A DNA stretch of 64,000 nt from an uncultured cyanobacterium (lineage in GTDB: Bacteria; Cyanobacteriota; Cyanobacteriia; Pseudanabaenales; Pseudanabaenaceae), in contig OY969811.1 of the NCBI GenBank assembly GCA_963703315.1, positions 160,001 through 224,000 on the forward strand. The letters run 5' to 3'. The notes below the pieces were generated by a model, which was not told where the DNA came from, ran no database searches, and saw only the letters and a list, made by a program, of their open reading frames with translations. Position 1 is the first letter of the stretch; every line of letters starts with the position of its first letter. The position numbers were made by a program, and so were the translations under genes. Shown here piece after piece: positions 27,496-31,693 of this stretch.

Positions 27496-28275
27496 ATGCC
27501 CTCCCCCTTTCCTGGAATGAATCCTTATCTAGAAAATCCTGAACTATGGTCGGCTGTACATAGTCGATTAATTGTGGCGATCGCTGATGCCCTCGCTGAC
27601 ACCCTTAGCCTAGACTATCGTATTGAAATCGAAAAGCGCACTTATTGGAGCGATGAAACGGGAGACGATCTACTAATTGGGATACCAGACGTTTCTTTGC
27701 TTAGTCGAAGTAAAACAAGCAACGAAAAAAATAGTGCAACCGCAGTTGCTGATCGAACAGCGATCGCCCCAATTCGTGTTCTCTTACCAACATACGAGGA
27801 AATTAGCGAACGCTATCTAGAAATTCGTGAAGTCCAAACGGGAAAAGTGATCACTGCGATCGAGATACTTTCTCCTAAAAACAAAAAGACAGGTGAGGGA
27901 CGTGAAGCTTATCTCCGCAAAAGAAGGCGAGTTTTACAAACCCAAACTCATTTTATTGAAATTGATCTCTTAAGAATTAATCCATCCTTTTTACAAGGAC
28001 AACTTCCTGCGTCTGATTATCATATTTTGGTCAGTCGCAGTCACGAGCGTCCTGCTGCTGATTTACATGCTTTTTCAATTCGCGATCGCATTCCTAATTT
28101 TCCTATTCCTCTACGCTTAGGCGAACCAGAACCTACACTAGATCTGCAAATTTTAGTGGATCAAGTTTATCAGCGCGGACGTTATGACCTAGCGATCGAC
28201 TATTCTCAACCCACACAACCACGTTTAAATAGTGAAGATGAACTTTGGGCAAGCAGCTTAATCAAAAATGGCTAA
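27496..28275 (+). CDS. DUF4058 family protein (PD-(D/E)XK-like)
   Basis: MPSPFPGMNPYLE, IEILSPKNK and IEIDLLR motifs. Confidence 0.85.
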   Translation: MPSPFPGMNPYLENPELWSAVHSRLIVAIADALADTLSLDYRIEIEKRTYWSDETGDDLLIGIPDVSLLSRSKTSNEKNSATAVADRTAIAPIRVLLPTYEEISERYLEIREVQTGKVITAIEILSPKNKKTGEGREAYLRKRRRVLQTQTHFIEIDLLRINPSFLQGQLPASDYHILVSRSHERPAADLHAFSIRDRIPNFPIPLRLGEPEPTLDLQILVDQVYQRGRYDLAIDYSQPTQPRLNSEDELWASSLIKNG

Positions 28276-28303
28276 ATATTTTTAAAGTTGCTTTCCCCAA
28301 TTG

Positions 28304-29503
28304 CTATGACTGTAAATCAGGTGGCGCAAAATCAAAGGGCAATTCGTTGTTAATTGCTTGAATTTGTTTTGCTTCGTAGGCATTTACCTCATTAATATAA
28401 GGAACCAGAATTTGCTTAAGCCGATCGCGATAAAAGCGATGCAAACTATAATTTGGGGTTGCAGGAAAACCGCGCCGTTTTTTATGTTGTCCCCCTGCCC
28501 CTGGGTCAAAGCGCTTAATTCCTTGAGCGATCGCCCATTCGATCGGTTTGTAATAACAAGCATTAAAGTGCAAACAATCAATTTCCTGAACGCATCCCCA
28601 ATAGCGTCCAAATAACTGATCATCCTTACGAATACAAAATGACATTCCCACAGGTTGCGGATAATCTTCGATTTCACCAGCCACAAATACAAGGCGATCG
28701 CGGAAACTATGGGCTAAATGTTCAAAAAACTTGCGATTGAGATATTTACTTCCACCCCAAAATTTATTGCAATGATCGTTATATAGCTCGTACATATAGC
28801 CATAGAAATAATGGGGAATCTCTTCACCCGTATAAACCCGCATTGTGATACCCGTGCTTTCGACCGACTTGCGCTCTCGCTTAATATTGCGGCGTTGATT
28901 GGCATTGAAATTTTTGAGGTAATCATCAAAATCCGTAAACTCTTGATTTTCCCAAACATAACTATGGTGCATCCAAGTTGTGAAGCCCCGCGACTCCAAC
29001 TCATGTTTCCAACTGGGATCAACATATAAGAAATTACAGCCCGACATCTGATAGCGATCACAAAGTTTGTCAATCTCCGCCAACATCAAATCATAGATTT
29101 TTGATAACTCATCAGGACTATCACTCAGATCAGGATGCACCAAAAAACGATAGCCCACCGCAGGCGTAAAGGGAGCCATCCCCAATAACTTCGGATAATA
29201 CTCAATCCCCAACCGATAGGACAAATCCGCCCATTGATGGTCAAACACAAACTCCCCTTGGCTATGTCCCTTAATGTACAAAGGCGCAGCCGCCACCAAT
29301 ACATCCCCTTGCCAGACCAATAAATGACTAGGTAGCCACCCCTGCTGCGCGATCGCACAGCCTGAAGACTCTAAATTCGAGAGCCACTCCCATTCAAAAA
29401 AAGGAGTCGCCAAAGGTTTTGCGAGAATATTCCATACTTCAGCCTTGACCTTATTAACTGTATCCACCCAAGTCGTCGTATAGCGAGAAGCCTGTTGCAA
29501 CAT
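28304..29503 (-). CDS. GNAT/FemAB-like protein (DUF482)
   Basis: HSQGEFVFDHQWA, LFGRYWG, LHFNACYY and GAGGQHK motifs. Confidence 0.88.
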   Translation of the reverse strand: MLQQASRYTTTWVDTVNKVKAEVWNILAKPLATPFFEWEWLSNLESSGCAIAQQGWLPSHLLVWQGDVLVAAAPLYIKGHSQGEFVFDHQWADLSYRLGIEYYPKLLGMAPFTPAVGYRFLVHPDLSDSPDELSKIYDLMLAEIDKLCDRYQMSGCNFLYVDPSWKHELESRGFTTWMHHSYVWENQEFTDFDDYLKNFNANQRRNIKRERKSVESTGITMRVYTGEEIPHYFYGYMYELYNDHCNKFWGGSKYLNRKFFEHLAHSFRDRLVFVAGEIEDYPQPVGMSFCIRKDDQLFGRYWGCVQEIDCLHFNACYYKPIEWAIAQGIKRFDPGAGGQHKKRRGFPATPNYSLHRFYRDRLKQILVPYINEVNAYEAKQIQAINNELPFDFAPPDLQS

Positions 29504-29649
29504 AGTAAAAGTCTTGGCAGTATTAAGTAAAATTGCTCAGTGTATATAGTTTAACAAATGCTAATGCCTAAAGTCATAACCACATCTTTATACTGTTTTC
29601 TATTTTGATGCTTTCAATTCTTGCATTTTTTAGATTGGTTTTGATAGGA

Positions 29650-30125
29650 CAGAAACTCATGAATTTATGTAAAGAAATAGTATTGTGTGATACCACCTGA
29701 GCTAATGTATATACATGGCACAAGAGACAAAGAACTCAATCCAAACGCAGTTCCAGCTTACATATTGAAATTAAGCTTTCAATAGGAGGAGGAAGCAAAA
29801 GAAAGAGTTAAAAGTCAAAATCGGATTGACGCTTTGTTGCTCCCCACGATTCTTCGATCTTTACGGGGCAGTGCTTATTCCAAAGATCGGTGTAGTTTTG
29901 ATAGCTTCGATAGCCTGTTCTATTGTTAAGGTCTTTTGAATTTCTCTCAATGTTTGCGTAGGTTTTGACCTAGCATTGTGATTAACGAGACAAACTTATA
30001 TAGTTAAAGAAATAAGGGCTACAGCGTACAGTTAATCAATGCCTAACACGTATTAGTAAACCTCTAGTAGAATCAAAATTGAATTATTTAAAAAAATGAG
30101 TCTAGCAGCCTTCTGCTAGACTCAT
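29650..30125 (+). ncRNA. Candidate ~400-nt structured ncRNA gene, copy 1 (promoter region ~29650-29714, transcript ~29715-30134)
   Basis: Tandem paralog of 30156-30641; no conserved ORF; multiple complementary segments; terminal hairpin followed by a T run. Confidence 0.6.
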
Positions 30126-30133
30126 CTCGTTTT
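30096..30133 (+). terminator. Terminator of unit 1
   Basis: ATGAGTCTAGCAG-cctt-CTGCTAGACTCAT then CTCGTTTT. Confidence 0.75.
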
Positions 30134-30155
30134 GAGGAATATATTAAGTAGCCGC

Positions 30156-30641
30156 CAGAAATGCATGAATTTATGTAAAGAAATAGTATCGTCTAACACC
30201 ACCTAAGCTAATGTATATACATGGCACAAGAGACAGAGCAACTCAATCCAAACGCAAGTCCAGCTTTAATTTCAAGAGTAATCTTTAAAAAGGAGGAGGA
30301 AGCAAAAGAAAGAGTTAAAAGTCAAAATCGGATTGACGCTTTGTTGCTCCCCACGATTCTTCGATCTTTACGGGGCAGTGCTTATTCCAAAGATCGGTGC
30401 AGTTTTGATAGCTTCGATAGTCTAGATTGTTGTTAAGGTCTTCTGAATTCTTCTCAATGTATATTTAGGTTTTGACCTAGCATTGTGATTAACGAGACAA
30501 ACTAATTTAGCTTATTTAGCTTAAAAGACAAAGGCTACAGCGTACAGTTAATCAAAACCGAACACGTTACAGTAAACCTCTAGTAGAAACCTAATTGAAT
30601 TACTTAAAGACATGAGTCTAGCAGCCTTCTGCTAGACTCAT
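30156..30641 (+). ncRNA. Candidate ~400-nt structured ncRNA gene, copy 2
   Basis: Same scaffold as copy 1, including a 109-bp identical block (30291-30399 = 29784-29892). Confidence 0.6.
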
Positions 30642-30650
30642 TCAGTTTTT
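30612..30650 (+). terminator. Terminator of unit 2
   Basis: Identical 30-bp hairpin followed by TCAGTTTTT. Confidence 0.75.
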
Positions 30651-30762
30651 GGGGGAAATGCGAAAGCGCTGCTGTGACACCTTTGCTGTGAATGATCCAT
30701 CTTTCGGTAAAATAAACAACAATTCATTATTTTTAAAATCCTAACTTAGGGGTAAACGAGCC

Positions 30763-31512
30763 TTGCCTAAAATCGTTATCGCTGGCAACTGGAAAATGTA
30801 TAAAACCCAGTCCGAAGCCAAAGCATTTTTTTCGGAATTTCCTGCTCATCTTAAAGAAACCGCATCTCAGGCGGCGATCGCTGATCGGCAAATCCTTATT
30901 TGCGTACCTTATACCAATCTAGCGATCTTACAAACCGTCATACCAGCGATCGGTCAAGCTAATCTCAGTATTGGCGCTCAAAATGTCCATTGGGCAGAAA
31001 ATGGCGCATTTACAGGTGAAATTTCTGCACCAATGCTAGTCGAGCTTGGCATCAAATACGTGATTATCGGTCATAGCGAACGTCGGCAGTTCTTTGGCGA
31101 AAGCGATGAAACTGTGAACAAACGCCTCAAAGCCGCTCAAGCGCATGGACTAACCCCCATCCTCTGCGTTGGCGAAAGCAAGCAACAACGGGATGCCAAC
31201 GAAACTGAGTCTTGGATTTTCTCGCAGTTGGCTGCCGACCTGATTGATGTTGACCAAAACAATTTAATCATCGCTTACGAACCAATTTGGGCGATCGGGA
31301 CAGGCGATACCTGTGCATCGAGTGAAGCTAATCGCGTAATTGGACTAATTCGTAGTAAACTTACAAATCGCAACGTTACCATCCAATATGGTGGTTCCGT
31401 CAAACCCGATAATATTGACGAAATCATGGCGCAACCTGAAATTGATGGTGTGCTAGTTGGCGGAGCAAGTCTTGACCCAGCAGGCTTTGCCCGAATCGTA
31501 AATTATCGCTAG
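30763..31512 (+). CDS. tpiA: Triosephosphate isomerase
   Basis: [28 protein letters not shown] and LVGGASL motifs. Confidence 0.97.
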
Positions 31513-31693
31513 TTTTGCCTAAATTTCTTTTTTGTCTATACGCTGTTCATCCGTAAAAACAGCGATCGCCACAGCCGTCATAACCATAACAAAGCTTATC
31601 AAGTTATAAAAATTGACTTTATGAGATCTACTTTGTTATAATTATGTGCTGTTGATTAGAATACACAGCCGCAGATATACCAAATCATCACTT

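Follow-up and report, generated by a model that had tools for sequence, protein, structure and literature searches.

Which genetic element fills the 1259-nucleotide (nt) gap between a FemAB_like gene (PF04339, also known as DUF482; gene start at 29503) and the triose-phosphate isomerase gene tpiA (start at 30763) in an uncultured cyanobacterium of the Pseudanabaenaceae? The two genes lie on contig OY969811.1 of assembly GCA_963703315.1, in a stretch of 64,000 nt (positions 160,001 to 224,000 of the contig) that is here called the window; an earlier note, made from its letters, had proposed that the gap contains two paralogs of a large structured RNA. Our analysis indicates that the window holds two tandem genes for a structured non-coding RNA (ncRNA) of about 420 nt, each with its own promoter and terminator. 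They very probably represent a family of free-standing, trans-acting structured ncRNA genes, a conclusion that concerns the kind of gene and not any one mechanism.

The gap is filled by two co-oriented direct-repeat units on the + strand, as the note had described, with a start-to-start spacing of 506-516 nt. The copies share 87% identity by BLAST, or 92% mean column identity in a MAFFT alignment with flanks, and their longest identical stretch is exactly 109 nt (29784-29892 = 30291-30399), the same core that had been recognised by eye. The 30-nt hairpins reported near the ends of the units are indeed identical (30096-30125 and 30612-30641) and each is followed by a T-run on the + strand; our scan placed two terminator-like sites here, compared with 0.6 ± 0.9 in shuffled sequences. 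According to BLAST, the 4.57-Mb genome has two copies in total, both at this locus. The features of the two units and of the genes beside them are as follows.

29717..30134, + strand: RNA copy 1 (about 418 nt), GGCAC through terminator T-run; edges from the drop in conservation among 54 copies
30223..30650, + strand: RNA copy 2 (about 428 nt); edges from the 54-copy alignment
29659..29677, + strand: upstream promoter box of copy 1, ATGAATTTATGTAAAGAAA, spanning about -58 to -40 relative to the inferred start; almost without variation among 54 genus copies
30165..30183, + strand: upstream promoter box of copy 2, same sequence as in copy 1
29703..29713, + strand: -10 region of copy 1, overlapping TAATGT / TATATA; conserved
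30209..30219, + strand: -10 region of copy 2, as in copy 1
29717..29721, + strand: 5'-terminal GGCAC of copy 1, partner GUGCU at 29871-29875; pairing canonical in 83 of 84 RNAs
30223..30227, + strand: 5'-terminal GGCAC of copy 2, partner GUGCU at 30378-30382; same family-wide pairing
29855..29889, + strand: loop-bearing hairpin of copy 1, CGAUCUUU (29855-29862) with AAAGAUCG (29882-29889), enclosing GGGG and the 11-nt loop CAGUGCUUAUU
30362..30396, + strand: loop-bearing hairpin of copy 2, 30362-30369 with 30389-30396; from covariation test and fold
29959..29972, + strand: small hairpin of copy 1, UAGGU-UUUG-ACCUA; strongest covariation within the genus
30466..30479, + strand: small hairpin of copy 2, UAGGU-UUUG-ACCUA; from covariation test and fold
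30096..30133, + strand: terminator hairpin of copy 1 (13 bp, loop CCUU) with T-run; from the terminator scan
30612..30649, + strand: terminator hairpin of copy 2 with T-run; from the terminator scan
28304..29503, - strand: neighbouring FemAB_like gene (PF04339, Pfam E 6e-137), divergent from the RNA genes, outside the element
30763..31512, + strand: neighbouring tpiA (PF00121, Pfam E 4e-89), co-oriented and downstream, outside the element
27496-28275: DUF4058 gene (PF13267) adjoining the FemAB_like gene, unrelated to the RNA

Distribution and conservation of the RNA

The search for relatives by BLAST that had been suggested for this locus was productive: among 71 genomes of the family, which in this set is the whole order, a DNA search returned full-length homologs with 73-86% identity in 45 of the 47 Pseudanabaena-genus genomes. 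Because a unit of about 420 nt is kept in so many genomes of the genus, the repeat is far beyond chance, and the RNA is not peculiar to the source genome or genus. The genus contributed 60 distinct full-length copies of 402-450 nt, and in 12 of its genomes the 3' domain is matched twice, for the most part as a tandem. In an alignment of 54 copies, conservation starts abruptly at the box (A/G)TGAATTTATGTAAA(C/G)AAA and stops just past the terminator T-run, with unalignable flanks on either side. Two genomes of the same genus, G039 (99% complete) and G047 (88% complete), gave no match by BLAST or in either use of the covariance model. A pattern search for the hairpin in the genomes of 185,579 species gave 40 stretches, 31 of them named Pseudanabaena, three Pseudanabaenales or Pseudanabaenaceae, and six with generic or other names. 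At locus L045:1463-2620 (G045:C12), a full copy is accompanied by a fragment (2237-2314) and by a second full-length 3' domain (2470-2620), an arrangement suggestive of a tandem array in partial decay.

Model R1, a covariance model that covers the 3'-terminal 150 nt of the RNA, matched 55 of the 71 family genomes and 7 of the 12 genera. All R1 matches outside the genus cover the full model, and two genera have two to three matches per genome, some on separate contigs. A second covariance model (R2), which includes the relatives from other genera found with R1, gave matches in 15 genomes out of a class-wide sample of 151; four other families account for six of these genomes. The covariance models did not find the RNA in the remaining genomes of these family and class samples; the family genera lacking a match mostly have small genomes (2.3-3.6 Mb). 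The distant matches are not a terminator artefact, because the 5' module of the RNA, which is absent from the models, was found 290-600 nt upstream in 19 of 19 non-genus family matches and in five of seven matches from other families. The RNA family, 290-600 nt long, spans at least five cyanobacterial families and is conserved from promoter box to terminator loop. Two loci of family f23, L185 and L186, have the promoter box and the GGCAC start, and the complementary loop was not placed with confidence in them.

Substitution rates, calculated on one shared tree of 35 genomes, separate the conserved from the variable parts of the RNA. The RNA core accumulated 0.87 changes per site and the terminator 0.51, compared with 5.26 at the third codon positions of tpiA and 4.0-4.6 in the RNA's own variable parts.

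The 5'-end pseudoknot and the fold of the RNA

In every member of the family, the first five bases of the RNA are complementary to five bases in the 11-nt loop of a downstream hairpin, which lies about 150 nt from the 5' end in the Pseudanabaena genus and 28-136 nt from it in other members. All five pairs are canonical in 83 of 84 distinct RNAs, in the combinations GGCAC/GUGCC, GGCAC/GUGCU, AGCAC/GUGCU, GACAC/GUGUC, GGUAC/GUACC, GGCAC/GUGUC and GGCGC/GUGCU. Three of the five positions switch from one Watson-Crick pair to another in separate lineages, and GACAC/GUGUC occurs in two separate families. A pseudoknot had been predicted for this RNA before; the best-supported one differs from that prediction, as it joins the first five bases to the hairpin loop.

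Among 22 distant 5' modules, 21 fold into the hairpin that bears this loop, and the stem of this hairpin varies by lineage (for example, GGUU..AACC, GGCU..AGCC and UUAGGG/CCCUAA). Within the genus, the CGAUCUUU/AAAGAUCG stem keeps eight of eight pairs (99.5% of cells) with one compensatory change, and its counterpart in another genus is AUUUCG/CGAAAU. The helix that the earlier note had given as CGATCTTT/AAAGATCG is strongly supported in the same way, with AUUUCG/CGAAAU at the equivalent place. The TGCTCCCC/GGGGCA stem of that note fared less well: one compensatory change speaks weakly for it, and the CCCC/GGGG helix is weakened because the G-run pairs with a downstream, 3'-side C-run in other genera. 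An extension of the CCCC/GGGG stem by UGCU/AGUG was rejected, as it competes with the better-supported pairing of the 5' end with the loop and with the helix 7-17/161-171.

Beyond the 5' module, RNAalifold applied to the 54 RNAs returned 75 pairs, 14 of which show a compensatory change. In a curated structure of 11 helices with 75 pairs, which we put to the test, 17 of the pairs are changed on both sides, compared with 8.3 ± 1.8 in shuffles (0 of 500 reach 17) and 6-11 in slid controls. Likewise, 47 cells are changed on both sides, compared with 11.9 ± 3.2 in shuffles and 10-24 in slid controls. The small hairpin UAGGU/ACCUA has five of its six pairs compensated, with the variants GAGG/CCUC, UGAGU/ACUCA and CAGAU/AUCUG. 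Some support within the genus was also found for the helices AGAGACAAAGC/GCUUUGUUGCU, CGAUCUUU/AAAGAUCG and GUCUC/GAGAC, and for a long-range set pairing GGUGUAGUUUUGAUAGC...UAGCCU with GGGCUA...AUCAAUAC...ACAC. Many G-U pairs fit the + strand only.

All the complementary segments listed in the earlier note are present in both copies; two of them, GTCAAAAT/GTTTTGAC and TGATTAAC/GTTAATCA, are neither kept as pairs nor compensated in other species. The hairpin said to keep its position with a different sequence is also there, and its second version, TTTCAAGA/TCTTTAAA, has one mismatch. Two further routes to the fold were abandoned. Long-range pairing of AGGAGG with CCUCU was rejected on the grounds that column 448 varies (U, A, C or gap) against an invariant partner, and a tree-based scan of all column pairs left the small hairpin alone as a clear signal, the other top pairs being noise.

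A middle region, highly variable in both length and sequence, is closed by UUGUCU(C/U) with (G/A)AGA(C/U)AA. It is followed by a 3' domain of about 150 nt with the motifs GAGACAAAC, AGUAAACC(N)CUAGUAA and UGAAUUAU, in which AGUAAACC(N)CUAGUAA and UGA(A/U)UUAU are near-invariant. This domain also contains a covarying hairpin (CUCA/UGAG, CUCAA/UUGAG, UCCA/UGGA, CUUAU/AUAAG). The terminator stem covaries across genera, as in GAGUCUGGUAG/CUACCAGACUC and GGACCUGGUAG/CUACUAGGUCC, around a constant loop: the stem takes the forms AUGAGUCUAGCAG, CGUGAGUCUGGUAG and GUGGACCUGGUAG, and the loop and closing bases stay AGCCUUCU.

Transcription and alternative explanations

Each RNA is preceded by conserved promoter elements. 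The upstream box, part of the promoter-like head that had been noticed earlier, is identical in both copies and nearly invariant over the 54 genus copies, and it recurs as RTGAAYTTNTNTWAA in other genera and families, where homologs have it at -57..-42. Throughout the RNA family, GGCAC is preceded by a TAnnnT element whose end lies 7-8 nt upstream, and the transcription starts previously guessed near 29715 and 30221 agree with this family-wide -10 element, which stands just upstream of GGCAC. Most non-genus members have a -35 element TTGCNN, a 17-bp spacer and a TAnnnT -10 element. We considered and rejected an HLR1/RpaB-type identity of the upstream box, as the fit to the consensus is partial and fails in other genera. 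With up to three mismatches, the box occurs 36 times in the genome compared with 22 for its reversed control, and no regulon can be drawn from it for that reason.

Transcription was assessed in RNA libraries. Between 5 and 13% of the sampled words of positions 28300-31600 of the window are held by 23 RNA runs from 16 studies. As a measure of expression, we summed the depth of assembled RNA-library contigs from four studies at 80% likeness. In run X1, depth over the element reached 19356 and 12499, the latter in the bin 30298-30408 within RNA copy 2, compared with 0-75 over the flanking genes. The corresponding values were 2087-2568 compared with 0-8 in run X5, about 40 compared with 0-6 in run X7, and 406-852 compared with 0-68 in run X8, which puts the element some 10- to 1000-fold above its flanking genes in depth. 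DNA carry-over would not produce such a contrast. Contigs that match exactly cover 29763-29918 (depth 2540) and 29889-30066 (depth 847) in X5 and 29739-29918 in X7. A further exact-match contig, from X1 (30014-30257, depth 82), spans the end of copy 1, the copy 1 terminator and the copy 2 promoter and reaches into copy 2; either read-through transcription or DNA carry-over could account for it. Some parts lack contig cover, such as 29632-29742 in X1 with the first 20-45 nt or so of copy 1, and such gaps are uninformative on transcript ends. The T-runs, the promoter elements and the many G-U pairs, which would be C-A on the other strand, point to the + strand as the one transcribed. The evidence for high abundance in RNA libraries is strong but not final, and in freshwater and sediment metatranscriptomes few non-ribosomal RNAs of Pseudanabaena, a common bloom-associated genus, may be more abundant than this one. 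The proposal of two independently transcribed paralogs of a structured RNA is supported by the compensatory changes, the lack of a conserved reading frame and the depth in RNA libraries.

Several observations nevertheless weigh against a structured ncRNA. The structure that we tested was drawn from the same sequences, which favours it, and covariation within the genus is modest and comes mostly from one hairpin. In the UCAAUCC/GGAUUGA helix, two base pairs give way to non-pairs through changes of both partners (G-G, two copies). Folded as a single sequence, the RNA has no unusual stability (z = -1.59, with 7 of 100 shuffles folding as well), and thermodynamic stability was discarded as evidence, neither this value for the + strand nor that for the - strand (z = -0.98) being significant. 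A scan for the sigma-70 consensus gave four sites compared with 3.7 expected, none at the inferred starts; the scan misses the -10 region of copy 1 because the -35 element is degenerate in the Pseudanabaena genus. As to expression, the contigs show no strand, start or end, their depth is a poor measure of expression, and 80% likeness admits contigs of relatives.

The first alternative is that the RNA acts in cis, as a leader or attenuator of tpiA with a conditional terminator whose read-through controls triose-phosphate isomerase. The RNA is directly upstream of tpiA and co-oriented with it in 40 of 44 genus loci (FemAB_like is adjacent in 28 of the 44), its terminator is separated from the tpiA start by about 120 nt, and the X1 contig that crosses the copy 1 terminator would suit some read-through. 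However, tpiA stands beside the RNA in 0 of 17 loci of other genera (by tblastn on two loci and Pfam analysis of flanking open reading frames, ORFs), and several genomes have two to three RNA copies at different places. Two loci, L018 (G038:C88) and L041 (G025:C19), have the RNA and an intact flank without tpiA within 1.5 kb. Furthermore, the unit is duplicated whole, each copy with its own promoter box, and the depth of the element in the contigs is 10 to 1000 times that of tpiA. We regard control of tpiA in cis as unlikely by a wide measure; the link to tpiA is synteny at the genus level. A free-standing gene acting in trans is favoured because no locus in another genus has tpiA beside the RNA, and we infer trans action for an RNA that is not a tpiA leader.

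The second alternative, that the transcript encodes a small protein, as an mRNA or as a dual-function RNA, would concern either the 71-aa ORF of copy 2 (30221-30436) or a hydrophobic 37-aa peptide, MTLCCSPRFFDLYGAVLIPKIGVVLIASIACSIVKVF, resembling a type I toxin. ORFs of 70-103 aa occur in 19 of the 54 copies, which also counts against an ncRNA; the 37-aa ORF recurs in about 24 copies, a Shine-Dalgarno-like AAGGAGG is conserved in the genus, and the high transcript depth would suit an abundant small-protein mRNA. Against this, the 71-aa ORF is cut to 17 codons in copy 1, as observed before, and coding is not conserved in homologs: the ATG of this ORF type is missing from 17 of 54 copies (16 have ATA, AAG or AGA in its place, and the remaining one has it disrupted), a stop appears within 20 codons in 43 of 53 copies, and the position of the stop drifts. 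In 16 of 54 copies, the 37-aa frame is interrupted by a 1-nt insertion in the most conserved core; no start codon follows AAGGAGG. Parsimony counts of changes show no dependence on position modulo 3 in any of 12 sliding windows (for example, 67/75/73), compared with 267/107/1316 by codon position in a tpiA control from 35 of the same genomes; the RNA core is conserved at all three codon positions. Homologs in other genera retain the RNA motifs and not these reading frames, and the ORFs have no match in Pfam. A conserved reading frame, which the earlier note had named as an observation that would speak against an ncRNA, was looked for in the homologs and none is conserved. The long ORFs are explained by a T-poor, purine-rich sequence and by an invariant core that is open in two frames. 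A coding function is, in our judgement, very unlikely.

A DNA-level or selfish element (a repeat, a mobile-element remnant or a protein-binding array) with incidental transcription would fit the tandem duplication, the perfectly palindromic and almost invariant 3' hairpin and the conserved upstream box, but is extremely unlikely given two genome copies at this one locus rather than a dispersed repeat family, a position that is syntenic across the genus, neighbours (FemAB_like, tpiA, DUF4058) without a transposase or integrase among them, compensatory changes and strand-specific G-U pairs that point to selection on RNA, and depth in RNA libraries far above that of the flanks.

Known RNA families and possible roles

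The earlier note had placed the structured ncRNA in no class that it recognised, and comparison with Rfam 15 agrees with that view. Its 4227 models include 6S, RNase P, tmRNA, SRP, Yfr1/Yfr2, Cyano-1/2, OLE, raiA, ROOL, GOLLD, HEARO and the group I/II introns. No match to them was found at the gathering threshold in the window or in 15 loci of distant homologs. When positions 29400-30800 were searched with E up to 10, the best match was MIR405 (25.4 bits, compared with a gathering threshold of 102), and all matches lay on the terminator hairpin. The genome has its own 6S RNA (RF00013; G000:C1:1403156-1403342, 63.5 bits, above the cut-off), and its RNase P and tmRNA genes were found elsewhere. 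In a full-text literature search, the listings and abstracts returned described no such RNA in Pseudanabaena or cyanobacteria.

Few large, abundant, structured bacterial RNAs have been described, and 6S, tmRNA, OLE, raiA and others have each opened a line of work. The new RNA resembles OLE, raiA, ROOL and GOLLD in being a multi-domain RNA of 300-600 nt with pseudoknots, lineage-restricted, apparently abundant and encoded by a free-standing gene. It differs from them in its cyanobacterial hosts, in the absence of a covariance-model match and in its architecture, with a pseudoknot between 5' end and loop, a variable middle and a 3' domain with a sequence-fixed terminator hairpin. Like 6S RNA, it appears to be abundant, stable and independently transcribed, and a protein-sequestering mode is favoured for it; unlike 6S RNA, it is more than twice as long and has no model match, and the single long irregular hairpin of 6S is not predicted, since the consensus and minimum-free-energy folds are multi-domain with long-range helices. 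The cyanobacterial small RNAs Yfr1 and PsrR1, which have unpaired C/U-rich motifs, and C-rich regulators such as RsaE/RoxS are RNAs of 50-130 nt with one or two hairpins. With these, the new RNA shares an independent gene and a Rho-independent terminator, and its non-genus members expose CCUCCU; it differs in lacking an Rfam match and in the absence of CCUCCU from the Pseudanabaena genus. Exoribonuclease-resistant RNA folds offer an analogy in which the first bases likewise pair with a downstream loop, but there is no similarity in sequence or demonstrated fold.

By this analogy, pairing of the 5' end could shield it from 5'-end-dependent RNases. Locking the 5' end into the hairpin loop would stabilise the RNA and make it long-lived, which would explain its abundance. 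Given that the element is an ncRNA, we judge that a stable protein-binding RNA, serving as a scaffold or sequestering its partner, has not quite an even chance of being correct. This role is favoured by conservation that is complex and extends over several domains, by single-stranded motifs of fixed sequence and by the terminator loop, which is fixed as well; the protein partner would be held by those invariant motifs and by the 3' hairpin with its fixed sequence.

The pairing loop itself suggests a second role. Among 24 distinct non-genus members, 20 have the loop sequence CCUCCU, which resembles an anti-Shine-Dalgarno sequence (22 of 26 if every copy is counted). All 19 homologs from the family outside the genus carry CCUCCU in this loop; of five validated homologs from other families, three keep CCUCC, and the other two have CUUCC and CUCCC. 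The CCUCCU shares part of its bases with the strand to which the 5' end of the RNA pairs. It could pair with ribosome-binding sites. Copies of the Pseudanabaena genus have CUUAUU in the loop, without CCUCCU, and base pairing through CCUCCU cannot be general for that reason. Given an ncRNA, we estimate that a base-pairing regulator using the C/U-rich loop is possible but appreciably less likely than a protein-binding RNA, and to a catalytic or other role we assign a small chance, leaving the rest of the probability unassigned.

A more far-reaching proposal, which we advance tentatively and hold more probably wrong than right, is that the element is the founding example of a new class: a highly abundant cyanobacterial RNA of 290-600 nt with its 5' end capped in a hairpin loop, distributed over at least five cyanobacterial families, mostly with larger genomes, and acting as a ribonucleoprotein or global translation regulator. 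Its loop would mimic the anti-Shine-Dalgarno sequence in most lineages, with a Shine-Dalgarno-like AAGGAGG in Pseudanabaena instead. If this were true, a housekeeping-grade RNA would have been overlooked so far. What is new here is the RNA family and its architecture, and the mode of action may prove familiar. Annotation, structure probing, partner pull-down and knock-outs can start directly from the covariance models and the 5'-end pseudoknot.

Outside the genus, the neighbours of the RNA differ by locus and include genes for an RRM protein, a carbamoyltransferase, HrcA, Uma2, MOSC, TrmD and RNase PH. At three loci, the gene for an RRM_1 RNA-binding protein (E ~1e-21) is divergent and lies just upstream of the RNA promoter (L164:3157-3525, L166:1768-2136, L172:3303-3617). 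This protein is a possible partner of the RNA, and the three orthologous loci of one genus amount to one independent association. At seven other loci the divergent upstream ORF has 122-156 aa (L162:1720-2112, L165:3037-3450, L167:1357-1725, L168:3221-3691, L170:3034-3426, L173:1558-1935, L174:3209-3586), with no Pfam match at six of the seven (L174 excluded). The next ORF in six of these seven loci (not in L167) has 325-340 aa and was assigned by Pfam to aspartate/ornithine carbamoyltransferase in five of the five tested.

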